Shown piece after piece: positions 22,610 to 35,214 of a stretch of DNA of 64,000 nucleotides (positions within the stretch are counted from its first letter, which is position 1; each line of letters starts with the position of its first letter). The translations under genes were made by a program, and so were the position numbers. The notes beneath the pieces are model-generated. The model was not told where the DNA came from. It saw only the letters and a program-made list of their open reading frames with translations, and did not search any database. Source of the DNA: Candidatus Paceibacter sp. (GTDB lineage Bacteria > Patescibacteriota > Minisyncoccia > UBA6257 > 02-FULL-45-10c); assembly GCA_020724845.1 (NCBI GenBank), contig DYGE01000003.1:1377-65376 (forward strand). Reading direction: 5' to 3'.

Positions 22610-22707
22610 AAACTTGTTGCAACCTTGCGTAATTTCTTATATCATATAAAAATATTGAAAATTCAATATATATTCCCCGGTAGCTCAGCGGTAGAGCGGC
22701 GCGCTGT

Positions 22708-23274
22708 GAATAACTAAGTTTGTCTTTTCTGGTATAATCAATTGTGTATGCCAGAAAGGAGAACATATGCCGACCGTGCTGAATATTTAAAACAGGCTGT
22801 TACCAAGAGGAGAAGAAAACTCAAGGTGATGCTTGTAGAATATAAAGGCGGTAAATGTAGGATTTGTGGCTACAAGAAGACCCATTGGGCGCTTGATCTT
22901 CATCATATCGATGCCTCCAAAAAAGAATTTGGATTATCAGTACGAGGATTAACGCGCTCTTGGGAAAAGCTTAAACAAGAGGCAGATAAATGCATACTTG
23001 TTTGTGCTAATTGCCATAGAGAAATACACGCAGGCATTACGCAGCCTTCTAAAGTAATTTAGATTGAATAACGAGGTGAATTCGGTGAAGTCCATCTATT
23101 GATGGATAATACCGAGCCAAGGTCGCTTTAGGCGACAAGGTGTAGAGACTATCCCACAAGGGAGTAGGTTGTAGTCCCCAAAAAGATTTACATCCGAAGC
23201 GCCTCGCCACGTGATCTAAGAAGATTTTACGTGGATGATATAGTCCACCCCTATTAGTAATAGTAGGATAAGTG
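22708..23274 (+). other. Group I intron inserted in the tRNA anticodon loop. It carries an HNH homing-endonuclease ORF.
   Basis: Conserved group I core elements: R-like GTAGAGACTATCC (23142-23154) and S-like GATGATATAGTCC (23236-23248), which pair to form P7. The 5' exon ends in U and the intron ends in G. The exact splice points are ambiguous by 2 nt. Confidence 0.6.
22742..23062 (+). CDS. HNH homing endonuclease encoded in the intron
   Basis: CRICGY...LDLHHID...CANCHREIH: a complete HNH motif with two CxxC zinc knuckles. Confidence 0.8.
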   Translation: MCMPERRTYADRAEYLKQAVTKRRRKLKVMLVEYKGGKCRICGYKKTHWALDLHHIDASKKEFGLSVRGLTRSWEKLKQEADKCILVCANCHREIHAGITQPSKVI

Positions 23275-23300
23275 TAACGCGACGGTCGTAGGTTCGATCC

Positions 23301-24893
23301 CTACCCGGGGAGCCATATCGGACGAACGGAGTCAAAAGCTCCGTTTTTCTGTTTATTCATGCCACTTACAGCAGGTTCTAACCGAGAATTCTCTGCAACA
23401 CCCACGAATGAGACATTTTGCAGGGGTATCAGGTATTTGGCCATATCAATACGCAGTTTTTTGTCTTGTAGGAGAAGGTTCGAACCGAGCGCTTTTAGAA
23501 TGCTTCGTTTGGTTTCTATGCTTCCTTCCTGGTAGGCGGCGTGCGCATATTTGGCAAAGGTGAAAATCTTTTCTGCGTTCTCCATCCAGGCGTCTACACG
23601 GCGGTCCGTATCCTGTAAAAGTCCCTGGAATTTGTTTTTCTGCTTCTCAAGCTCCCTGCGTTTGCTCTTGTATTCGTCTTCGGTGATCTCGCCAGCCGCG
23701 CGCATGTCAATCAAATTGTCCAGCTTGCTCACTACGATGTTGTAGTTTCTTTGCTGGGTTTCCAAGATTATGTTGCGGTCGCTTGATTCTTTGGCGTTTT
23801 CTTCCTGAAGCCACTTCATGGCCCAGCTATGAAAGTTAGCGGGTATCTCAATGCTTTTCAAAAGTTCGGCAACCTGGCTTTCCAATGCTTTTATTTCCAG
23901 CGACCGCTGGGAGCAGGGACCTTTGCGCTTGGTGCAGTGGTAGTAGAGGTAATAATGGACGTTGCCGTTTTTCGGCCGTTTGACCTTGTCCTCGGCCGTC
24001 ACGTAACAGCCGCACTCTCCGCAGTGGATCATACCCGTATAGGCAAACTTTTTCTGACGTGGGCGTTGCTTTCCTTTTCTGCCCAGGTGCGCCTGGATGC
24101 GGTCGAAGTCTTCTTCGGTGATCATGGCGGGATGCCCGCCTTTGTACCAGTTGCCTGAACCTTTCGGGTATTCAAATTCGCCATAGTAAAATGGATCGGA
24201 CATGGCGCGGTAGAAGGTGCTCTTGGCCATCTTCTTTCCATTTGGCATGCGCAAACCCCATTCTTCGGTAGCAATCTTGTGAATTCTGGGAGCGGTGTAC
24301 ACGCCCTCCAGAACCATGGCGAACATCCGCTTTATTAAATCAAACCGCTTCGGGTCTTTTTTGATAATCTTTTGTCCTTTCTTGCGGTCTGGCGTATTCA
24401 TATAGCCGACAGGCGCAGGTCCTGGATACCAGCCGTTCTCGGCTTTGCGCTTGAGCTCCCGCTTTACATTTACAGAAAGGTCGCGGATAAACTGGTTGGC
24501 CATGCCGAGCTCAACGCTCATCATAAGTACGTTGTCGGTCGGGTAATAACTGCGGTCGTAGGTTTTGATATGGCGGATGACGTTTTGCTGGAGCATCCAG
24601 CTGATGTTTCCGCCGTCCACGGGATTGCGGGCCAGACGGTCCAGCTTCCAGCAGAGAATTCCCTGGGCTTCGCCGTTGGTAATCCGCGTGAGCATTTCGT
24701 TGAAAACAGGACGGCCTGGTGCTTTGGCTGACTGGGATTCGGTAAAGATGTGAACGATATTGATACCGTCACGCTGGGCCATTTCTTTGAGCACATCCAG
24801 CTGGGAATCAATGGAGGCTACCTGGCGGTCTTCCGCTTCCGATGATTTGCGGGCGTAGAGAAAGTATTTGAGTTGTGGCGTTAATCTCTCCAT
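23301..24893 (-). CDS. Large serine recombinase (phage-type serine integrase). Its 3' end overlaps the tRNA 3' end.
   Basis: N-terminal YARKSS catalytic Ser box and resolvase domain, recombinase domain, zinc ribbon (CGECGC...HCTKRKGPC), C-terminal coiled coil. 530 aa. Confidence 0.85.
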   Translation of the reverse strand: MERLTPQLKYFLYARKSSEAEDRQVASIDSQLDVLKEMAQRDGINIVHIFTESQSAKAPGRPVFNEMLTRITNGEAQGILCWKLDRLARNPVDGGNISWMLQQNVIRHIKTYDRSYYPTDNVLMMSVELGMANQFIRDLSVNVKRELKRKAENGWYPGPAPVGYMNTPDRKKGQKIIKKDPKRFDLIKRMFAMVLEGVYTAPRIHKIATEEWGLRMPNGKKMAKSTFYRAMSDPFYYGEFEYPKGSGNWYKGGHPAMITEEDFDRIQAHLGRKGKQRPRQKKFAYTGMIHCGECGCYVTAEDKVKRPKNGNVHYYLYYHCTKRKGPCSQRSLEIKALESQVAELLKSIEIPANFHSWAMKWLQEENAKESSDRNIILETQQRNYNIVVSKLDNLIDMRAAGEITEDEYKSKRRELEKQKNKFQGLLQDTDRRVDAWMENAEKIFTFAKYAHAAYQEGSIETKRSILKALGSNLLLQDKKLRIDMAKYLIPLQNVSFVGVAENSRLEPAVSGMNKQKNGAFDSVRPIWLPG

Positions 24894-24895
24894 GG

Positions 24896-25660
24896 TTATT
24901 GCCGATAATTTTGCAGCGCTTCGCTTTCCAAGGCGTCATAGTAAAGACCGATCGTGTTCTCGTAGCTGAAGATAAACCCGCTTTCGGTAATACCGATCTG
25001 GATAAACGGCGCACGGTCTGCTTCTACACCTTCTGGTAGCAGGTTCTGGTATTCCATGTCATTCCAGGTGAAGAAGTAGTTCGCGCCGTCTGGACCGCCA
25101 GACTTGTCACCGATCTCATACTGGCGGATGTTGCTTGTCAGCTGTTCAAAATCTGGCTCTACCCGCTCAAGAAACTGGAGTACAAGCTTGCTTAATTCGC
25201 CCTGACTTTTAACGTCGCAGGGCTTGTCATCGCAGAATCCGTAGTGTGGTTTGCGGTGAAAGGCAATGACCTTGCCAGTAGCCGAATCTACCTCGGCGGT
25301 TCCGCCCTGATCATCGGTAAAGTTTATTATTTTTTCCTCAACCACTCGGTCTCCGCGGATGCCCTCATAGGTAACCAGGCCAAAGTTCCCAGAACGGCCG
25401 TAGGCGTCTCTTGGTTCGAAGGTAAAGCTGGCACCCTCTGTAATGCCATAGATGCGGTTGGCTACGTCCAGAATGCCACGCAGGGCCTCGGTGGCCTGTT
25501 CTTTTTCTGCCTCGCTTACGGTTTCCCTCTCTTGGGCCACATCACCCGAAAGCGGTGCTTTGTCTGCCGTAAGGCTGTAAATCCCGTAACCTGCCCCAAA
25601 GACCGCAACAAGGGCGATTACGGCGTAAATTATGGTTTTATTTTTCATAAGTGTGTTCAT
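24896..25660 (-). CDS. Hypothetical secreted protein (signal peptide/TM anchor)
   Basis: ORF with a hydrophobic N-terminal helix. 4 nt downstream of the integrase start. Confidence 0.45.
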   Translation of the reverse strand: MNTLMKNKTIIYAVIALVAVFGAGYGIYSLTADKAPLSGDVAQERETVSEAEKEQATEALRGILDVANRIYGITEGASFTFEPRDAYGRSGNFGLVTYEGIRGDRVVEEKIINFTDDQGGTAEVDSATGKVIAFHRKPHYGFCDDKPCDVKSQGELSKLVLQFLERVEPDFEQLTSNIRQYEIGDKSGGPDGANYFFTWNDMEYQNLLPEGVEADRAPFIQIGITESGFIFSYENTIGLYYDALESEALQNYRQ

Positions 25661-25694
25661 TACGTTAATTGTTTAATTTTTCGACCTGGTGAGC

Positions 25695-25780
25695 GTGGGT
25701 CGCAGGCTCTAACAGCAACATGGTCCCAAGCCCGAAAGAAGTCAAACAATACAAAAAGGGACAGCCAGAGCCTGCGACCC
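25695..25780. repeat. 15-bp perfect inverted repeat (TGGGTCGCAGGCTCT / AGAGCCTGCGACCCA) with a 56-nt loop
   Basis: Direct reading of both arms. Located just upstream of the 24896-25660 gene start. Confidence 0.6.
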
Positions 25781-26026
25781 ACAGTCTTGGAATGCACGAA
25801 GGCACCCAATTGTGGAGGATGGCTGCCCCTTTCAGCCCGCAATTGGGCTTCAAAAGAAGCACAGCCATCGTGCAATATTCCAAAACTGTAGGTCGCACCT
25901 TTATAATGGCACTTACAGCGTTATTTTTCAATGTTTTTATGCGGGCGAAGGTAAAAACCTGTACCGATTTTGTCCGCCTTTTATCCGATTTATTTTGGTC
26001 GCTTTTAATGGTCATAAGGTTGTTTC

Positions 26027-26176
26027 TTACCGATGTTTTACCGATGGTCTACCGATGGTTGATAGGGTCGAAATACCTGAAGTTTCCCTGAAGTCTTCCT
26101 GAAGTTTTGGTGAAGAATTGGTGAAGTTCTGGTGCAACCCAGACTGCCGAATCCACCGAAGTTTTACCGAAGTCCA
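26027..26176. repeat. Iteron-like array: 3x TTACCGATG at 11-bp spacing, then five GAAGT-core repeats at exact 11-bp spacing (26079, 26090, 26101, 26112, 26123) plus two more (26158, 26169)
   Basis: Direct reading. 11-bp helical phasing is characteristic of Rep-binding iterons or phased transcription-factor sites. Next to the Rep-like winged-helix gene. Confidence 0.6.
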
Positions 26177-26251
26177 TAATTGTTTGTTTTTGACGCGCTT
26201 TGCGCGTATTACTTATACTTTCTTAATCTTCTTTCTTACTTATATCTCTAC

Positions 26252-26704
26252 TTAATCAGGTGGCCGTAGTGGCTCGCGGTCAAGCGTCATGTTGGTCTCT
26301 GACCGCAGACCACCATGGTCTCTGGTGCCGTGGAGCAGTTTTCTGTTTACGCGGTACATGGTTGTTGGCCACAGACCGCTCTCAGTCCGCACTTTCCTCG
26401 TCTCAATCAGGCCCAGACTTCTAAGCTTCCGCCTGGTTCTGACGCAGGTACTGCCCCCGAATCCATAGGCGGCAAAGCCTAATACCTTACCCTCTTTGGT
26501 TTCGAAGCTCTTATCCGTATGCCAGAACCAGCCATCCTTAGTCGCAAAGCGGTTAGAAAGACTACATAATCTGAACAGAAAATCCCGCTCAGCGTGACTG
26601 AGCTTCTTTCGCAGAGTTTCATTATCGTAGACAAGATGAGGCGCGAAGAAACAGTTTTCGTGCCTATTCTCTGATTGTTGTTTGTGATCCATAGTTTTCA
26701 TCAA
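26252..26704 (-). CDS. Winged-helix DNA-binding protein. Possible replication initiator or regulator of the element.
   Basis: ERDFLFRLCSL...CVRTRRKLRSLGLIETRK winged-helix-like segment. Adjacent to the iteron array. Confidence 0.4.
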   Translation of the reverse strand: MMKTMDHKQQSENRHENCFFAPHLVYDNETLRKKLSHAERDFLFRLCSLSNRFATKDGWFWHTDKSFETKEGKVLGFAAYGFGGSTCVRTRRKLRSLGLIETRKVRTESGLWPTTMYRVNRKLLHGTRDHGGLRSETNMTLDREPLRPPD

Positions 26705-26972: not shown

Positions 26973-27174
26973 GGTGTTCCTGTTGTTTTTCCATGAATTT
27001 CTGATAGGCAGGTTTGTAAAGCTGGATCAGATTATTCGCATGCAAAGAAGCCTCGGCCTCGGACAATTCCACGCCGTATTTTTTTCGGTAAATCTCTTTG
27101 AATTCTTTGATGGCTTCTTTGGGTAACATAAAAGCGGAGCTCCCGAAGGAGTCCCGCTTTTTGCCTCTGACCAA
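26944..27174 (-). CDS. Small hypothetical protein
   Basis: ORF only. Overlaps the spoVG-like gene start. Confidence 0.3.
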   Translation of the reverse strand: MVRGKKRDSFGSSAFMLPKEAIKEFKEIYRKKYGVELSEAEASLHANNLIQLYKPAYQKFMEKQQEHHEPDTNKNQ

Positions 27175-27597
27175 CAGAACACGGCCCGTCTATTGGGAGA
27201 GGAAATCGAACCCCCAAGGGTTATTGGCCGTGTTTTGTATTGGTTTGTGAAAGAAGCCTTGGTCTTTATCTGCAACGAAAAAAGACCGCTGCTTCTCGCT
27301 CTCGGTTTCAAATCATGGGTCCGCCCGAAGACGGATAATCTGATCTCATCGAGAGCAGAAGCAGTGGTCCTTTGTGGTCCCAATATGTCAGGACGTCTTG
27401 ATCACTTCTTCTGCCGTACAAATCTTACATGCGACAGTCGTATATCGTACCTGTATTATATGCCGCACAGAAAACTGCGGCAAGACCCCCGCATTGTGGA
27501 AAAGCCACACTGACAAAATCTGACAAGGACTGACGCAAAATTACGCTCTGACAGATTTGAACACTTCTGACATAAGCGCTATAATGAAATTAATCCT

Positions 27598-27789
27598 ATG
27601 AAAGACAGACTGCTCACAGTCAAGGAGGTTGCTGATTACCTACGTGTCAGCGAACGCTCTGTGCTTCGATATATAGAAGCAGGCAGACTTAATGCGTCCA
27701 AGGTCGGATGGTGGCGGATCAGGCAGTCTGATTTGGATGACTTTCTGAAAAGAACCAGTCGTCCGCAAAAAAGAAAACGCCATGGCTGA
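27598..27789 (+). CDS. Helix-turn-helix DNA-binding protein (excisionase/MerR-like HTH_17). Candidate excisionase, or a controller of the downstream methyltransferase.
   Basis: LLTVKEVADYLRVSERSVLRYIEAGRL HTH. Its stop overlaps the Vsr-Dcm start by 8 nt. Confidence 0.65.
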   Translation: MKDRLLTVKEVADYLRVSERSVLRYIEAGRLNASKVGWWRIRQSDLDDFLKRTSRPQKRKRHG

Positions 27790-29422
27790 TGTAATGACAA
27801 CCGCACAGCGGTCTTACAATATGTCCCGTATCCGCTCGCAGGATACAAAACCCGAAATCCAGCTTCGGAATCTTCTGATTTCAAACGGAATCAGTGATTT
27901 TGAAATTACACCTAAACATATCCCAGGGCGTCCTGATTTTTATTTCTCAAACAGAAAAACAGCTGTGTTTGTAGACGGATGTTTCTGGCATGGTTGCAAA
28001 GACTGTTACCAGGCTCCAAAGACCAATGCGAAGTTCTGGAAGAAAAAGGTCAGCACAAACACTGCAAGAGACCAGGTAGTTAATCGGGAATTAAAGTCTC
28101 TTGGAGTAAAAGTAATCAGGGTTAAAGAACACAGCCTGAAATCTGCGCCTGACAAAACTATAAAGCACATTGAATCTAAACTATCACAGGATCAGCGACC
28201 GAAGGTTCTTGATCTTTTTGCTGGCGCTGGAGGATTATCGGAGGGTTTTATGAGGGCAGGTTGTGAAATGATAGGCCACATTGAGGTTGATAAAAATTCC
28301 TGCGAGACTTTGACAACGCGTATGATATATCACGCGCTTAAGGCAAGAGGAAAATACGAAGATTATAAAAAATATGTTTTGGGGAAACTGAGCAGAGAAG
28401 AACTAGTTGAGAAATACGGTCTGCAGAGAGATCGGAATTCGGTGATATGTGCTGAAATTGGAAAGGATAATTATAAAAAACTTATAAGAGAAATACGTGA
28501 ACGACTCAACGGTCAGCAACTGGATATCATTGTCGGCGGTCCTCCGTGCCAGGCTTACTCGTATATCGGGCGTGCCAGAGACGAAAACAGAATGCGGCGT
28601 GATTCGCGTAATTTTTTGTACAGATACTATGTTGAATTCCTGAAAGCCTTTCAGCCGAAGATTTTTGTATTTGAAAATGTCCCTGGACTGATAAGTGCTG
28701 GTAAAGGCAGGTATCTGAAAGACATGCGGCGCCTTATGAAAAAGGCTGGTTATGACACTGGATACAAAATTCTTAACGCATCTGATTTTGGTGTGCCACA
28801 GAGCAGAAAAAGAGTTCTGCTGGTGGGGTGGAATAAATACTCAAAGATGGAGGAATATCCCGATTTTCCAAAAGTAAAAAGGCAGTATAAGGTCAAAGAT
28901 TTCTTTGTTGGGCTTCCAAAGATTAATTCTGGCGAAGGAAAAACAATACAACGATTCTCAAAAAGAAGTGATCTGCTTGAAAAGCTCAGAATCATGAATC
29001 CAGAATTTGGCCTGCTGCTGGATCATCTGTCGCGTCCCAATACCAAACAGGACCTTGAGATTTATCGACTGGCCGTTACGGCAAAGAAAAAAGGTCAGAA
29101 CATAAAATATAATGAGCTGCCAAGGCGTTTGAAGACACACAGGAATGAAGACGGTTTTCTCGACCGATTTAAAGTTGTAGATGCCAGCGCAGAAGGGTCA
29201 CATACCATAGTTGCTCACATAGCCAAGGATGGTCACTTCTATATTCATCCTGATCTGAGACAAAACAGATCTATTTCTGTCAGAGAGGCGGCGAGATTAC
29301 AAACGTTTCCTGATGACTATAAATTTGAAGGTACCCGAGGTCCCCAATTTCGCCAGATTGGAAATGCTGTTCCACCTATGCTGTCAGAGGTGATCGCGAG
29401 GGAACTAATTAAATACCTGTAG
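27782..29422 (+). CDS. Fusion protein: very-short-patch-repair (Vsr) T/G mismatch endonuclease fused N-terminally to a C5-cytosine DNA methyltransferase (Dcm-type)
   Basis: Vsr part: RSYNMSRIRSQDTKPE, GRPDFYF, FVDGCFWHGC. MTase part: FAGAGGLSEGF (motif I), GGPPCQAYS (IV), ENVPGL (VI), QTFPDDY...GNAVPP (IX/X). Confidence 0.85.
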   Translation: MADVMTTAQRSYNMSRIRSQDTKPEIQLRNLLISNGISDFEITPKHIPGRPDFYFSNRKTAVFVDGCFWHGCKDCYQAPKTNAKFWKKKVSTNTARDQVVNRELKSLGVKVIRVKEHSLKSAPDKTIKHIESKLSQDQRPKVLDLFAGAGGLSEGFMRAGCEMIGHIEVDKNSCETLTTRMIYHALKARGKYEDYKKYVLGKLSREELVEKYGLQRDRNSVICAEIGKDNYKKLIREIRERLNGQQLDIIVGGPPCQAYSYIGRARDENRMRRDSRNFLYRYYVEFLKAFQPKIFVFENVPGLISAGKGRYLKDMRRLMKKAGYDTGYKILNASDFGVPQSRKRVLLVGWNKYSKMEEYPDFPKVKRQYKVKDFFVGLPKINSGEGKTIQRFSKRSDLLEKLRIMNPEFGLLLDHLSRPNTKQDLEIYRLAVTAKKKGQNIKYNELPRRLKTHRNEDGFLDRFKVVDASAEGSHTIVAHIAKDGHFYIHPDLRQNRSISVREAARLQTFPDDYKFEGTRGPQFRQIGNAVPPMLSEVIARELIKYL

Positions 29423-29426
29423 AATC

Positions 29427-30914
29427 ATGAAAGTATTAAAGACAAATCCAGGCGCCAAACGTTTGATGGAAAGCCTGCGCAATATGGGTTATGACTGCAG
29501 TACTGCTGTGGCTGATTTGGTTGACAACAGTATTGTTGCGCATGCTTCTGAGATTTACATCGATATAATTCCGAAGCAGGATGATCACCCTGCAGCAATT
29601 GTTATTGCCGACAATGGTAATGGAATGGACAGGAATGAGCTTCATGAGGCAATGCGTTTCGGCGCTTTTCAGGAATATTCCCCAGATGATCTGGGTAAAT
29701 ATGGTCTTGGTCTCAAGACTGCTTCCCTCAGCCAGTGTCGTACTCTGACCGTTTCGTCCAAAGGAAAAAGTATTCGTGGCAAAAGACCGAGGCGCCACTG
29801 TATGCGCTGGGATATTGACCATGTTTATAAAACCGACGACTGGAATCTTCTTGAGTTATCCGACGATGAGCTTCTTCCTTGGGAGCAGAAACTTATTGAG
29901 CATGATGTCGTTAAAGAAAACGGCACCGTAGTATTGTGGACTGATCTTAATGATGCCCTGCCCCTTCTTTCCTCTGAAAATGCCTTGGACCGTGAGAGGT
30001 TTCTTGCTCACCTCATCGATGAAATCAGTAGTCATTTACGAATGGTATTTCATCGGTTTATGCAGGGTGCTGTTACGGGAAGACGGAAACTGGATATTTA
30101 TGTTTGCGGAGAGCAGCTGATTCCGTGGGACCCCTTCTGTCGAAATGAATCAACCCGTGAGCTGGAAATTATCCGTATTCCTGTTATTTCAATGGAGCCT
30201 GACGGTTCAAAATTAAAAGAAACGGTTACTGTCAGTCCTTTTGTTTTGCCACGAGATGATGAATTTTCATCTCCAGCTGCCTGGAGAGAAGCTTCTGGAC
30301 CCAAAAACTGGAATCAGCAGCAGGGCTTTTATTTTTATCGCAATAACCGTCTGATGCAGGCAGGTGGCTGGAACCGTATAAGAACCTCGGATGAACACAC
30401 AAAGCTTCTCAGGGTGGCAGTAGATTTCCCTGGAGAACTTGACCGCGCTTTTTCGATAAATATCACAAAAATGCGGGCAAAGATTCCGTCTGAAATAAGA
30501 CAGGATATTAAGTCCCATGTAAGTGCATGGGTGAAAATAGCGAGAGCCCGCTATGACGGTCTGTCTTCGAGAGCCAGTAAGCAGCGCCAGAAGCAACAGA
30601 GGTCAAAGACCCCCGAAAAGGGCAAAGCGGTTCAGGAACAGGTGAAGAATTCAGTCACGATGGGCCGTATGATTTTTCACAGAAGCGAAAACGCACGGGA
30701 CATTGTGATTACTGAGGACCGAAAAAGAAAACTTATAAATATATCAGTTCCTGTTTATCACGAGCTGGCAGGCATTTTTACCAATGGTAACAAGTGGGAT
30801 CATCACAAGTTTTCGATGATCACCCTTAGTATTCTTGAGGCAGTAGCGGCAAAAAAGCTTCCATCCGACCGTATTCCAGTCAGCACGCTCAGGAAAATTT
30901 ATAAAGAGTTATGA
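29427..30914 (+). CDS. GHKL/Bergerat-fold ATPase (HATPase_c_3-like)
   Basis: DLVDNSI (N box), IADNGNGMD (G1), GKYGLGLKTAS (G2). Starts 4 nt after the MTase stop. Confidence 0.7.
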   Translation: MKVLKTNPGAKRLMESLRNMGYDCSTAVADLVDNSIVAHASEIYIDIIPKQDDHPAAIVIADNGNGMDRNELHEAMRFGAFQEYSPDDLGKYGLGLKTASLSQCRTLTVSSKGKSIRGKRPRRHCMRWDIDHVYKTDDWNLLELSDDELLPWEQKLIEHDVVKENGTVVLWTDLNDALPLLSSENALDRERFLAHLIDEISSHLRMVFHRFMQGAVTGRRKLDIYVCGEQLIPWDPFCRNESTRELEIIRIPVISMEPDGSKLKETVTVSPFVLPRDDEFSSPAAWREASGPKNWNQQQGFYFYRNNRLMQAGGWNRIRTSDEHTKLLRVAVDFPGELDRAFSINITKMRAKIPSEIRQDIKSHVSAWVKIARARYDGLSSRASKQRQKQQRSKTPEKGKAVQEQVKNSVTMGRMIFHRSENARDIVITEDRKRKLINISVPVYHELAGIFTNGNKWDHHKFSMITLSILEAVAAKKLPSDRIPVSTLRKIYKEL

Positions 30915-33424
30915 TTAAAACGCTTTCAGACGCAGTCACAATTGTTGAATTTCTGATTTCCCGTCAGGGGAAAACAGTCGAAGAAGCCGTAGAAGAGGCT
31001 TCTGTTCCAATGCATCTTCGGGAGCAGGTAATAAAATATTTTGCTCTGCCTCTTGAAATCACGCCGCCCGATCTCCTCGTAAGCACTGAAAAGATTCCCC
31101 GTTGTGATCCAGACCCCGATTCTGTCCAGCAGTATTTCGGAGCTTTCCAGAGATTTCTTATCGATGAACGACACTGGCCAAAGTCAACCATTGATACCCT
31201 TGCAGATACCTCTCTCGACCTTGTCAGGCGGTTCCCCAAACCAGATGCGGTACAGTATTTTCAGGGGCGCGGCCTTGTAGTCGGGCACATACAAAGCGGC
31301 AAAACCGCCAACATGGCCGCACTGATAGCCCGTGCGGCTGATGAAGGGTATAAGCTCTTTATTGTTTTGGGAGGGTTCTGGAAAGATTTGCGGGCCCAGA
31401 CACAGAGAAGGCTGGATCAGGAAGTTGTCGGCGGTTCTGACAACGATGCAGATGGTCCATATGTTCAGCATGATTCTGAAATACCCCGATGGGTAAGACT
31501 TACCCGTTCTGGTCTTGAGGGTGACTTCAGGCCAGGTCCAAATGATCTGAACCCGCAGACACCAAAACTTGCTGTCATTAAGAAAAACAAAAGAATAGAA
31601 ACTCTGGTGAACTGGCTGAAAAAATCTCCCGTATCACTGGGTGAATTACCTGCAATTGTTATTGATGATGAGGCAGATCAGGGGTCTATAGATACAAATT
31701 ACGGACGTTACGATGATGACGGCGAGCAGATTGATCCATCTGCTACCAACAGGCGCATCCGAGAACTTCTTGGTATTCTTCCGAAATGTGTCTATGTCGG
31801 TTTTACTGCAACCCCCTTTGCCAACGTACTTATTGATGCCTCAACAGAGGAAGATTTGTATCCACGAGACTTTATCGCCACCCTCCCAGAGCCGCCAGGT
31901 TATTTCGGCCCGAGGAAGCTTTTTGGATTGGGGCTTGATCCTTCTGATCTTTCTCCTGTGCCTGCTCAAAGACCTCCGCTTGACCTGATTCGGCACATCA
32001 ACGAAGAAGATCTTGATGAAATTGATAAAGTAATCAATGAAGGCGGGTCTTGCCCTAGGATTCTTTCAGACGCACTTCTGTCTTTTGTGCTCGCAAGCTG
32101 CGCTCGTCTTGCACGGGGACATAACCGTGACCGTGATCATTCCAGTATGCTGGTCCATACATCTCACAGAACCGAGCCACACCGAATATTTGCTGACACG
32201 ATAAACCAGGAATTGCAGCTCATAAAGAATGCAGCTGCCCGACCCAAGTCCTTCCCCGAACTTATGGCCCGTGCCCGTGAGATATGGAATTCAGATTTTC
32301 GCAGAGTTACCGCAGAGCAGGATGACCCCGAACTTCAGGAGTACGATTTTGAAACAGTCTGGAAGTTTGCCAAGACACTGACAGAGTCGATTGAGGTTAA
32401 GGTACTTAACAGCACTTCGGACGATGAGCTGGACTATACTGGGCACGCAAAAAGATATGTGGTTGTGGGCGGAAACCGCCTTTCCCGCGGGCTTACCCTG
32501 GAGGGACTGTGCGTAAGCTTATTCACCAGAGATACAAATCAGTACGATACCCTTCTGCAGATGGGAAGATGGTTCGGCTATCGACCTCAATATCATGATC
32601 TGACAAGAATATATGTGGAATCACAGCTTGCTGAACGTTTTGCAGAGCTTGCCCGTGTTGAAGAAGAAATGAGGGCAGACCTGTCCAAGTATTCACAGCA
32701 GCCAGACCCCCCGACGCCCCTCCAGCTTAAACCTGTTATCCGCAGTCACCCGACAATGATGGTGACTTCCCGTATGAAAATGGGTGCTGGGAGGCCTCTC
32801 TATATTTCTTTTCAGAATACTTTGCAGCAGACAGTTGCTTTTCCGATGGAAAACAAATCACTGCTGCAAAACAATCTTGAGGCGGCAAAAACGTTTATCT
32901 CTGGACTTCCTGATAATCTCCAGAGTGCTTCTGATGAAGGTACGCATATATGGACCGATGTCCCGTCAGAAAAGATTCTGGAATTTCTTCAGGCTTATGA
33001 ATTCAGCCGTGAGGCTCGGGATGTTAACCGCCAGAATCTGGTCAGTTATATTTCCCGACAGAATAACAGGGGCGAGCTTGTATTATGGGACGTGGTTATC
33101 CCGCGCGGAAATCCTAAGCTGGAACCTTTCAAATGGACGAAAAATATACTGACACGCAAAATTACACGTGTGCCGATGACAAGTAAATCTATCAGGGTTT
33201 TGTCGAGCCCTGCTGATATCAGGAACTGGCAACAAGTAGCATACCGCGACCTTAAAGATCCCAAACGGGGATGCCTGATGCTTTATTTGATTGACAGAAA
33301 ATCTGATCTGGGGAGCGATGTAAAGTTTTTTCCGAATACTTCCGATGCCGAAGATATTCTTGGTCTCGTTCTTGCTTTCCCCGAATCAAAATCTAATGAA
33401 ACGATTGAATATGTCTCACAATGA
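30911..33424 (+). CDS. Large P-loop NTPase of the Z1-domain type (methyltransferase-associated)
   Basis: GHIQSGKTANM Walker A and IVIDDEADQGS Walker B. 837 aa. ATGA start overlaps the upstream stop. Confidence 0.6.
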   Translation: MIKTLSDAVTIVEFLISRQGKTVEEAVEEASVPMHLREQVIKYFALPLEITPPDLLVSTEKIPRCDPDPDSVQQYFGAFQRFLIDERHWPKSTIDTLADTSLDLVRRFPKPDAVQYFQGRGLVVGHIQSGKTANMAALIARAADEGYKLFIVLGGFWKDLRAQTQRRLDQEVVGGSDNDADGPYVQHDSEIPRWVRLTRSGLEGDFRPGPNDLNPQTPKLAVIKKNKRIETLVNWLKKSPVSLGELPAIVIDDEADQGSIDTNYGRYDDDGEQIDPSATNRRIRELLGILPKCVYVGFTATPFANVLIDASTEEDLYPRDFIATLPEPPGYFGPRKLFGLGLDPSDLSPVPAQRPPLDLIRHINEEDLDEIDKVINEGGSCPRILSDALLSFVLASCARLARGHNRDRDHSSMLVHTSHRTEPHRIFADTINQELQLIKNAAARPKSFPELMARAREIWNSDFRRVTAEQDDPELQEYDFETVWKFAKTLTESIEVKVLNSTSDDELDYTGHAKRYVVVGGNRLSRGLTLEGLCVSLFTRDTNQYDTLLQMGRWFGYRPQYHDLTRIYVESQLAERFAELARVEEEMRADLSKYSQQPDPPTPLQLKPVIRSHPTMMVTSRMKMGAGRPLYISFQNTLQQTVAFPMENKSLLQNNLEAAKTFISGLPDNLQSASDEGTHIWTDVPSEKILEFLQAYEFSREARDVNRQNLVSYISRQNNRGELVLWDVVIPRGNPKLEPFKWTKNILTRKITRVPMTSKSIRVLSSPADIRNWQQVAYRDLKDPKRGCLMLYLIDRKSDLGSDVKFFPNTSDAEDILGLVLAFPESKSNETIEYVSQ

Positions 33425-34451
33425 AATTACATTCGGAGGTATCCTGCAGCCGCTGGTTGATCGCCTGACCCGTACTCCGCAAAAAAGAGGCAAACTTTCG
33501 GGTCAGGAGGTCGTCATCCCGAGAAAGGATGTGGGAGTAATTATCGCTGTTGATGATGAGAATAATATTCACCTTCTTGTTTCTCCAGCGCCTTCAGACC
33601 TGGATCATCTTTCAAAACTTGATCTGAAAGGATTAAAAATTGATGTCAAAGACTGGGCAGTTGCCGAAAAACCAGCTCAAAGCTATCTTGATATTTTCTG
33701 TACAACAGGCTCACTTCCTTCGTTCAGGCGCCCATTCCTTCGTTTTGCTGAGGATGTACTGTATGAAGTTTCTAAGTCACAAACACAACCTTCTGATGCA
33801 GTATACAAAACCTGTATAAGATGGAGAAAATTCTGGAGCCCTGATGTTAAAACAGAAATAACAAGAGAGTGGATTCAGGGTATGTTTGGAGAGCTTAGCT
33901 TTCTTTCCAGTCTGATAGAACGGTTCGGGTCTGGTGTTGTGGGCAGCTGGAGCGGGCCTGTCGGTGCAGATCATGATTTCCAGTCGGGAACAAAGCTGGC
34001 AGTTGAGGTAAAAACATCCACCGAAACACCTTTTCGTATTATCTGCAATATTCATCAGCTGGATGATTCTTTGTTCAAAACACTTTTTATAGCCTGTTAT
34101 CGCATTACTGCAACAGAAAAAGGACGGACTCTGTCAGAACTTGTAAGAGAAATCGAACAGCTTATGGGTGATGACGAGACTGCCTTGGATGTATTTTATG
34201 AACGCCTCATGGCGGGAGGTTATACCCGCCAGCTTGAGTCCGCTTACGATAATTTCAGGCTGGAGACTGATGATGTTGTTATGTTCCGTGTAGATAATAA
34301 CTTTCCGAAGCTTACCGAGAAAAGTTTTGTACGTCCGCCTGATCATCGTATCAGCAGCATAAGATATATTCTCGAACTTGCAGGCCTGAAAGAGCTTTCC
34401 TTTAATGATGTGTCAGGTGAGTTAAACATATTTGCTAATGAAGAAAAATAA
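33411..34451 (+). CDS. Putative PD-(D/E)XK-like nuclease (possibly AIPR-like)
   Basis: GELSFLS...GADHDF...LAVEVKT resembles an E...D...E-x-K nuclease core. Overlaps the upstream gene by 14 nt. Confidence 0.4.
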   Translation: MSHNEITFGGILQPLVDRLTRTPQKRGKLSGQEVVIPRKDVGVIIAVDDENNIHLLVSPAPSDLDHLSKLDLKGLKIDVKDWAVAEKPAQSYLDIFCTTGSLPSFRRPFLRFAEDVLYEVSKSQTQPSDAVYKTCIRWRKFWSPDVKTEITREWIQGMFGELSFLSSLIERFGSGVVGSWSGPVGADHDFQSGTKLAVEVKTSTETPFRIICNIHQLDDSLFKTLFIACYRITATEKGRTLSELVREIEQLMGDDETALDVFYERLMAGGYTRQLESAYDNFRLETDDVVMFRVDNNFPKLTEKSFVRPPDHRISSIRYILELAGLKELSFNDVSGELNIFANEEK

Positions 34452-35214
34452 TCAGCTCGCTCTTATTGTTGCCTATTTTCTGTCACGGTGTGACAGGGAT
34501 GCTTATACCCGTCTCGGATACAGTTCCTTTACAGAGGCAACAAAAGAGGTCGGAAAAATCCTCGGTGTTAAGCAGGCTACAGTTCAGAACATGCGTGATG
34601 AATTTGATCCATATCATGACAATCCACGTGTCGGCTGGCAACGGGAATTGGCTGGCAGTCGTCTGAAAGTGATGGAGGCATTTCAGAATACTGACGATGA
34701 AACTATGCTGGAGATAGTTAAAGAAATCCTCTTTAACAGCAATTTCCAGGAGACTGATGAATTTCATGATATAAGTGTTGTCTTTTCGGATAAAAAGCAA
34801 AATCGTCACAAAAGAGAATCCGTGTTTATATTAAGAGGTCCTACTGGGAAAAAGGCAGAGAACTTTTTTATAGCTAATTTTGAAAAAAGCAGGAATCCTG
34901 TTGACGGCACCTTAACAGACAGACGCGAAGACGGATGCGGTTATGATTTTGAAATAAAAAATTCTGTAGGCCTGCATTTTATTGAGGTTAAAGGGCTGGC
35001 ATCTGAAAGCGGTGGAGTACTGTTTACAAACAAAGAATGGAAAACTGCGCTCATGCACGGCGACAGATATTATCTTGTACTGGTTCATAATATTGCTGCT
35101 CAACCATCCCTGAAAATTATTAGAAATCCAGCTGCAAAGCTTAAAGCCAAGAAGAATATTTACACCACGGTACAGGTAAGCTGGTCTATATCATCTTTAA
35201 TCTTGGAATCCTGA
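34432..35214 (+). CDS. Putative restriction-endonuclease-like protein (DUF3883-like PD-(D/E)XK C-terminal domain)
   Basis: GYDFEI...HFIEVKG...YYLVLV at the C-terminus. Overlaps the upstream gene by 20 nt. Last gene of the operon. Confidence 0.4.
   Translation: MLMKKNNQLALIVAYFLSRCDRDAYTRLGYSSFTEATKEVGKILGVKQATVQNMRDEFDPYHDNPRVGWQRELAGSRLKVMEAFQNTDDETMLEIVKEILFNSNFQETDEFHDISVVFSDKKQNRHKRESVFILRGPTGKKAENFFIANFEKSRNPVDGTLTDRREDGCGYDFEIKNSVGLHFIEVKGLASESGGVLFTNKEWKTALMHGDRYYLVLVHNIAAQPSLKIIRNPAAKLKAKKNIYTTVQVSWSISSLILES

Follow-up and report, generated by a model that had tools for sequence, protein, structure and literature searches.

We analysed a 64-kb stretch of metagenome contig DYGE01000003.1 (hereafter the window), in which a transfer RNA (tRNA) gene is split in its anticodon loop by an insert holding a group I intron core and an open reading frame (ORF) for an HNH endonuclease. 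When ARAGORN was run over the whole window with default settings, 0 tRNAs were found in the 64 kb; with its intron search, it returned a single split tRNA at 22674-23315 on the forward strand, with an insert of 567 nt. Once spliced, the exons form a 75-nt canonical cloverleaf, which ARAGORN calls tRNA-Asn(gtt). The 5' half reads TCCCCGG-TA-GCTC-AGCGGTA-GAGC-G-GCGCG-CTGT and the 3' half reads TAA-CGCGA-CGGTC-GTAGG-TTCGATC-CCTAC-CCGGGGA-G-CCA; together they give an acceptor stem of 7 pairs (U1-A72 to G7-C66), a T arm (GTAGG-TTCGATC-CCTAC), the discriminator G73 and an encoded CCA.

The insert matches the Rfam group I intron model RF00028 at 22993-23267 (+), over the full model (1-253), with 59.8 bits against a gathering score of 50 (E = 1.2e-12). 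This was the sole Rfam family to reach its gathering score within the window; matches to preQ1-II and mir-96 in the same region lay far under theirs and were rejected. For comparison, the HNH protein was used as a query and gave 352 loci in species-representative genomes (numbered with the prefix L), of which the best 80 were examined; homologues L003 to L081 score 51-93 bits with RF00028. The core of the window copy folds with z = -5.4 relative to shuffles. In an alignment of 49 homologous cores, with helix partners slid by 1-3 columns and 500 shuffles as controls, standard pairs were formed in 86.6% of cells (33-45% when slid) and the covariation score was 0.475 (at most 0.11 in the controls), the observed values being reached in 0/500 shuffles. 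Among these homologues, 54 of the 67 pairs changed on both sides, and compensatory changes occurred in every helix (P2, P3, P4, P5, P6, P6a, P8, P9, P7.1, P7.2) except the invariant P7. For P2, 96.9% of cells were paired, with both-side changes in 6/6 pairs; the corresponding values were 95.7% and 3/4 for P7.1, and 78.4% and 5/6 for P7.2. Situated between P7 and the P3 3' strand, the extra hairpins P7.1 and P7.2 are the structural hallmark of subgroup IA, to which the intron would belong. The window core is 70.5% identical to that of the intron of GCA_016700035.1, which has been spliced in vitro, and 72.6% identical to that of the ORF-less Paceibacteria intron of GCA_016699245.1.

Two junctions, 2 nt apart, had to be weighed. 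ARAGORN with intron search prints Thr(tgt) with an intron at position 33, and a GTG repeat in the window sequence permits a U before the 5' splice site and a G at the intron end for a 33/34 junction too; on this account, the gene would be a tRNA-Thr(UGU). Three sets of comparisons bear on the choice: (i) in 61 of 61 homologous introns parsed, the 5' exon ends in CTGT and an intron-terminal G lies directly before TAA, so that 35/36 satisfies both splice-site rules throughout, while the terminal G needed at 33/34 is present in 45/61 and missing in 16/61; (ii) P1 forms from CUGU and GCAG in 51 of 51 distinct homologues, U35 being the base in the U•G wobble and U33 lying opposite an A, and intron position +1 pairs with the base before the internal guide sequence (IGS) in 48/51, G-C, A-U and U-A variants all being seen; and (iii) when metagenome contigs were scanned for tRNAs that have no intron but share the D-stem 3' strand, T arm, acceptor 3' strand and G73, with any anticodon allowed, the anticodon was GTT in 120/120 and TGT in none among the matches listed, all of which begin with U1. 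One tRNA (L099) differs from the window's spliced tRNA in the anticodon stem only. Bacterial tRNA-Thr carries G1-C72 and A/U73, while the U1-A72 and G73 present here are, by established knowledge of identity elements, features of tRNA-Asn. The miscall itself is on record: standard tools miss such genes, and ARAGORN and tFind often call Thr(UGU) at 33/34 through a 2-nt shift where the sequenced product is that of 35/36 (PMC13011429). On the other side, blastn of the spliced tRNA against E. coli genomes gave a tRNA-Thr as best body match (80-82%, positions 8-63), which was given little weight because it leaves out the acceptor stem and the discriminator and crosses phyla. A GGCGC within the ORF (22890-94) was also tried as a guide for 33/34; it could pair, but has no P2 after it and is not conserved. 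Because U(-1) and the terminal G are found in 61/61 and the U•G wobble at U35 in 51/51, the splice junction is, on comparative sequence grounds, 35/36, the intron 22708-23274 and the product tRNA-Asn(GUU), and we consider the tRNA-Thr identity exceedingly improbable. A sequence-only reading of the locus had preferred tRNA-Asn(GUU), an identity upheld by the splice-site rules, the P1 wobble and the intron-less counterparts; the alternative it had kept, Thr-UGU through the ambiguity of the GTG repeat, is excluded by the same observations.

The ORF encodes a protein of 104 aa in which all HNH motif residues are intact (C37xxC40, H52H53, C86xxC89-H90 and H94). It matches PHROG 2255 'HNH endonuclease' with E = 1e-29 and a second PHROG HNH family with E = 1.6e-26, and its homologues form 2802 clusters at 90% identity. 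Among proteins of solved structure, the best match is to a group II intron maturase/reverse transcriptase (6ME0 chain C, residues 468-554; E = 0.003), in its C-terminal HNH (En) domain, with which the motif residues align. Ratios of nonsynonymous to synonymous substitution (dN/dS) against relatives are 0.05-0.13, with dS saturated, which suggests that the endonuclease is under strong purifying selection. An ATG at 22767 preceded by a Shine-Dalgarno-like AGGAG was rejected as the start as it is out of frame; the ORF starts at the ATG at 22748.

The placement of this ORF follows from comparison with published ORF-less introns, in which the 5' splice site is followed by a loop of ~5 nt, GCAGCC, P2, GAAAAC and P3 (PMC13011429). 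The window and these ORF-less relatives share the same guide sequence, P2, J2/3 and P3, yet in the window the guide sequence follows the splice site only after 333 nt; the ORF therefore lies in the P1 loop. No guide sequence was found before the ORF near the intron 5' end. A direct repeat, TGAATAAC (22707-14 and 23066-73), was considered as an insertion scar and discarded, not being conserved in homologues. The reading frame itself crosses the guide sequence (codons I-T-Q-P) and ends at a TAG within the 3' strand of P2, the final 22 nt of the ORF overlapping guide sequence and P2. Homologues that were correctly anchored all have their guide sequence within the ORF as well, 13-75 nt ahead of its stop. 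The coordinates of all these elements are collected in Table 1.

Table 1. Features of the split tRNA-Asn locus (positions in the window) and location of phage relatives of its HNH gene.
Feature	Position	Strand	Basis or remark
Promoter-like site TTGCAA, 17 nt, TATCAT, upstream of the tRNA gene	22617..22645	+	Consensus scan, 9/12 matches
tRNA-Asn 5' exon (acceptor 5' strand, D arm, anticodon stem 5' strand, C32 U33 G34 U35)	22674..22707	+	ARAGORN with intron search
Group I intron, 567 nt, between tRNA positions 35 and 36	22708..23274	+	RF00028; homologue boundaries
Hairpin in P1 loop, 13 pairs, 3' strand holding the HNH start codon	22724..22759	+	Sequence and fold
Extended -10-like box TGGTATAAT, in hairpin 5' strand, 9 nt before ATG	22730-22738	+	Motif
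HNH homing-endonuclease ORF (putative role), 104 aa, in P1 loop, running into IGS and P2	22748..23062	+	
Internal guide sequence GCAGC (P1 3' strand), pairing with G31-C32-U33-G34-U35	23041..23045	+	G23041 wobbles with U35
P2 hairpin UCUAAA-GUAA-UUUAGA	23048..23063	+	ORF stop TAG 23060-23062 in 3' strand
Catalytic core	23072..23267	+	RF00028, fold, homologue alignment
P3	23072-78/23200-06		
P4	23082-86/23111-15		
P5	23090-96/23101-07		
P6	23116-18/23139-41		
P6a	23122-27/23131-36		
R-like element GTAGAGACTATCC	23142-23154	+	Forms P7 with S-like element
P7	23147-51/23241-45		
P7.1	23152-55/23160-63		
P7.2	23167-73/23189-95		
P8	23207-12/23229-34		
S-like element GATGATATAGTCC	23235-23247	+	Forms P7 with R-like element
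P9	23250-56/23261-67		
Terminal guanosine (omega-G)	23274	+	G in 61/61 homologues
tRNA-Asn 3' exon (U36 A37 A38, anticodon stem 3' strand, variable loop, T arm, acceptor 3' strand, G73, CCA)	23275..23315	+	ARAGORN
Intrinsic-terminator-like hairpin followed by a T run, after the tRNA	23324..23346	+	Pattern match
Phage HNH relatives	IMG/VR loci L203-L282; MT708547.1 303224-303917; MF288922.1 32103-32727		

The window is a segment of JGI metagenome contig Ga0246236_1000045 (164,681 bp). Its cellular genes include those for HisRS, FtsA, a ribonucleotide reductase (large-subunit domains plus TSCPD) and a P-type ATPase. Because the closest named HisRS relatives are from Candidatus Harrisonbacteria (77% and 69%), the host is probably a member of the Patescibacteria (Parcubacteria), Harrisonbacteria-like. 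With this, every element that the sequence-only reading had listed is recovered in its place: the tRNA gene split in the anticodon loop, which ARAGORN with intron search places at the same coordinates with the same 567-nt insert; acceptor halves pairing over 7 bp; a group I intron, for which it had proposed the RF00028 search that has now passed the gathering score; R-like and S-like elements forming P7; an intact HNH ORF of the form CxxC...HH...CxxC-H; and a host resembling the candidate phyla radiation (CPR), in keeping with the Harrisonbacteria match at 77%.

We conclude, with a probability of about 0.9, that a Patescibacteria bacterium has at 22674-23315 a functional tRNA-Asn(GUU) gene into which a mobile 567-nt intron of subgroup IA is inserted at 35/36. 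The window copy would self-splice by the usual two guanosine-dependent transesterifications, and the 75-nt product would read ...GCGCGCUGUUAACGCGA.... Several observations weigh against this conclusion. P1 has to form over a loop of 333 nt; P10 is weak (1-3 pairs) and not conserved, the first and third bases of the 3' exon pairing in 47/51 and 43/51, respectively; the HNH protein scores 19.7 bits with Pfam PF01844, just short of the curated cut-off of 21.4; the promoter-like and terminator-like sites flanking the tRNA gene occur at about the number expected from shuffles; the tRNA search covers 64 kb rather than the genome's full tRNA-Asn set; and splicing of the window copy rests on sequence comparison together with the in vitro result for a homologue. 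To these must be added the E. coli tRNA-Thr match described above, and two loci (L018 and L025) in which the HNH gene lies beside an intact intron-less tRNA-Asn, an awkward arrangement if the enzyme cuts every intron-less tRNA-Asn gene.

The indirect evidence for splicing, along with an RF00028 score at the low end of the range of the family, would also suit an intron that no longer splices, in which case the locus would be a disabled tRNA gene or a decaying remnant. We regard such decay as very unlikely: every core helix is intact in the window copy, the U•G wobble, the terminal G, the guide sequence and P7 each have their canonical form, and both the cloverleaf and the encoded CCA are preserved. 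Promoter-like and terminator-like sites flank the gene, albeit at the frequency already mentioned, and there is no second tRNA in the 64-kb window. Moreover, genomes seldom hold copies with an intron together with copies lacking one for the same tRNA (PMC13011429).

The region around the start of the HNH gene appears to hold signals of its own. The motif TG.TAyAnn-N6-12-ATG occurs in 51 of 81 related loci, with a spacing of 9 in 38 of those 51, and the box TGGTATA(C/A)T is present in free-standing and intronic copies of the HNH gene alike. It pairs with TATGCCA in a hairpin that buries the AUG; in the window this hairpin has a free energy of -16.7 kcal/mol (-5.0 for shuffles), and across loci the mean is -11.5 kcal/mol (-3.9 for shuffles). 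The arrangement TGGTATAAT-N9-ATG suggests that an extended -10 promoter belonging to the ORF itself could drive its transcription into a nearly leaderless mRNA. Within the complete pre-tRNA, this stretch would fold into the AUG-burying hairpin, leaving the ORF silent and possibly preventing ribosomes from entering the guide sequence and P2 during ribozyme folding. Both the promoter and the hairpin functions are put forward here as predictions from sequence. In one locus (L030), where the HNH gene is free-standing, its stop lies only 13 nt before the tRNA, so that the box may be that tRNA's sole promoter.

In bacterial genomes, the HNH gene is not always intronic. Among ~75 classifiable bacterial loci, it is free-standing in 10, on the same strand as, and immediately beside, a tRNA-Asn: (i) six copies are upstream of a tRNA-Asn whose 35/36 intron is ORF-less (L008, L021, L030, L035, L037 and L060), (ii) two are downstream of such a gene (L019 and L023), and (iii) the remaining two adjoin an intron-less tRNA-Asn, one upstream and the other downstream of it (L018 and L025; RF00005 65-72 bits, RF00028 no match). 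The arrangement was upheld by an Rfam scan for L008, L018, L023, L025 and L030. In a neighbour-joining tree (no bootstrap), the free-standing copies are interspersed with the intronic ones at at least four places, and the free-standing copies of L030 and L035 neighbour the intronic ones of L020 and L024, the tRNA 5' exon being identical. HNH-bearing tRNA-Asn introns are far commoner in draft Patescibacteria genomes than the four known among complete ones would indicate.

Two further observations were made on these loci. The records of L008, L012, L018, L021, L047, L049, L059, L067, L072, L078 and L082 are titled Pseudomonadales, Gammaproteobacteria, Omnitrophota, Planctomycetia or Limisphaerales; these titles may reflect mislabelled or mis-binned genome bins, or a presence outside Patescibacteria. 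Five other loci (L005, L014, L046, L053 and L074) carry this HNH gene together with the same guide sequence and P2 inside a tRNA-Asn, but the core downstream is a different one, without P7.1/P7.2, in which J3/4-P4 is GGGATAAC and P6 is GGGAAC; L046, L053 and L074 score under the RF00028 gathering score, and L005 just reaches it at 51.2 bits. The endonuclease and the P1-P2 module may have been combined with more than one ribozyme core.

Relatives of the HNH protein (53-69% identity) are also found free-standing in phage tRNA arrays, on 264 viral contigs and in 342 GenBank phage records, the carriers including Lak megaphages, Klebsiella jumbo phages and Bacillus Bastille-like phages. In 53 of the 77 viral loci with tRNA calls (16/34 clusters after dereplication at 80% identity), the tRNA closest to the HNH gene is tRNA-Asn(GTT); tRNA-Asn accounts for only 65 of the 443 tRNA calls in the same loci. 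More distant phage HNH clusters adjoin other tRNAs. In the annotated phages Muenster and Janet, the HNH gene comes directly after a tRNA-Asn; in two viral loci (L203 and L208), it lies within a split tRNA-Asn, and in a third (L247), a phage tRNA-Asn has a 194-nt intron at 35/36.

Since relatives adjoin tRNA-Asn in phage arrays and in other Patescibacteria, we propose tRNA-Asn as the target: the 104-aa protein would be a homing endonuclease that cuts intron-less tRNA-Asn genes, repair then copying in the intron together with its ORF. The same protein might instead not be, or no longer be, a homing endonuclease, and be kept for another role, for example in ribozyme folding over the long P1 loop or in a host function. 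A dN/dS of 0.05-0.13 across very divergent Patescibacteria lineages would fit such a role, as a purely selfish gene is expected to decay after fixation; 104 aa is small for a sequence-specific homing enzyme, the intron-less tRNA-Asn genes beside the HNH gene in L018 and L025 have evidently been left undestroyed, and the closest solved structure belongs to a group II intron maturase/reverse transcriptase. However, all the catalytic and zinc-binding residues of the HNH motif are kept, and to our knowledge there is no HNH-type group I maturase. The gene has switched between intronic and free-standing positions at several places in the tree, and its relatives adjoin tRNA genes in unrelated phages, which is the pattern of an actively mobile homing gene. 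We judge a role other than homing to be unlikely.

The HNH lineage thus occurs in three settings: phage tRNA arrays; beside Patescibacteria tRNA-Asn genes with or without an ORF-less intron; and the P1 loop of the intron, in frame with guide sequence and P2. On this basis, we suggest, tentatively and at somewhat less than even odds, that the HNH gene is a self-contained cassette, with its own -10-like box and start-codon hairpin, belonging to a lineage specialised on tRNA-Asn, with phages as the likely shuttle. L030 and L035 on the one hand, and L020 and L024 on the other, could then be snapshots of merger or separation, because the placement of the HNH gene is all that distinguishes these closely related genomes, whose 5' exons are identical.

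At the 3' end of the tRNA gene, a large serine recombinase of 530 aa is encoded at 23301-24893 on the reverse strand (Resolvase, Recombinase and Zn_ribbon_recom domains; PHROG 95 'integrase', E = 3e-67), its last four codons and stop overlapping the final 15 nt of the tRNA. The next four ORFs, of which three occupy the reverse strand at 24896-26704 and the fourth 27027-27383, match no family; they are followed by a Vsr-Dcm cytosine methylase fusion (27782-29422) and, at 29427-35214, by genes matching MzaB, MzaC (Z1 domain) and MzaD (DUF4420), plus a NOV_C protein. The recombinase with the methylase and Mza genes looks like a defence island integrated beside the tRNA-Asn. A search of the window for a repeated tRNA 3' end that could serve the recombinase as attachment site, allowing up to 3 mismatches, gave no second copy.

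For genome annotation, the consequence of such a locus is that tRNA finders miss the gene or call it Thr(UGU), and the genome appears to be without a tRNA-Asn, which distorts completeness estimates of Patescibacteria, a point already made by others (PMC13011429). The abundance in draft genomes, the purifying selection and the tRNA-Asn neighbours make up a testable natural series for the assembly of mobile group I introns. It is the endonuclease cassette and its free-standing relatives that go beyond published work, the cassette and its three settings being outside the scope of the published survey (PMC13011429).

The split tRNA-Asn with an HNH-bearing intron at 35/36 is a member of an already known class, common in the phylum. 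Patescibacteria tRNA-Asn(GUU) group I introns at 35/36, of subgroup IA, have been described by Nakagawa et al. (mSystems 2026; PMC13011429; preprint 10.1101/2025.07.03.662931), and an earlier computational mapping with tFind had listed the class under the name 'Asn.4Ug' (Williams 2020, 10.1101/2020.01.27.920355). In that survey, 15 of 95 complete Patescibacteria genomes had a tRNA-Asn 35/36 intron, four of these introns encoded HNH (PF01844) endonucleases, and two, including the ORF-less one of GCA_016700035.1, spliced precisely at 35/36 in vitro (PMC13011429). Subgroup IA was assigned to 25 of 28 introns at 35/36 and nearly all Patescibacteria tRNA introns were IA, none being IC; among the complete genomes surveyed, HNH-bearing 35/36 IA introns were confined to Patescibacteria (PMC13011429). 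With these frequencies and the 352 HNH-related loci found here, the appraisal of the locus as unusual in the sequence-only reading is not supported. The introns of Nakagawa et al. share with that of the window the host gene, the insertion site, P7.1/P7.2, the endonuclease family, the phylum and the ARAGORN Thr miscall; they come from 95 complete genomes, whereas the window comes from a different organism, on a Harrisonbacteria-like metagenome contig, and their paper is without the ORF position (P1 loop, overlap with guide sequence and P2), the -10-like box with its hairpin, and the free-standing copies. One published example, the 568-nt intron in the tRNA-Asn of GCA_001029735.1 (506336-506978; PMC13011429, supplementary table), is our locus L071 (CP011213.1), whose HNH protein is 70% identical to that of the window.

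Classical bacterial tRNA introns are those of the cyanobacterial and plastid tRNA-Leu(UAA) at 34/35, of tRNA-fMet at 33/34, some with the PD-(D/E)XK enzyme I-SspI, and of Azoarcus tRNA-Ile and Agrobacterium tRNA-Arg at 36/37. Unlike the intron of the window, they belong to subgroup IC (IC3), are without P7.1/P7.2 and occupy other positions (PMC13011429 and general knowledge); they are also mostly ORF-less, and none has an HNH gene at 35/36 (PMC13011429). What they have in common with it is that they are self-splicing group I introns of the anticodon loop, with a P1 formed from the anticodon stem-loop and very similar core motifs such as GUAGAGACUA. IA-type group I introns with an HNH homing endonuclease are found in the Bacillus phages SPO1 and SP82 (I-HmuI and I-HmuII) and in phage Twort (I-TwoI). 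These, likened to the window by description only, differ in lying in protein-coding genes and in having larger, nicking enzymes.

Endonuclease genes in phage tRNA clusters are known from T4 (SegB) and T5 (F-TflI/II/IV), and 'collaborative homing' joins the free-standing F-CphI with an ORF-less psbA intron in cyanophage S-PM2 (PMC2330249, PMC6083498). Like SegB and the T5 enzymes, the phage relatives of the window HNH are free-standing in tRNA arrays, mostly beside tRNA-Asn. SegB is a GIY-YIG and F-CphI an Endo VII-like enzyme, unlike the HNH protein of the window, whose gene is moreover intronic; the T5 enzymes are likened by setting only. The S-PM2 pair has its counterpart in those Patescibacteria in which a free-standing HNH gene lies beside a tRNA-Asn with an ORF-less intron, and the repeated switches in position of the HNH gene resemble the collaborative-homing route proposed for this cyanophage.

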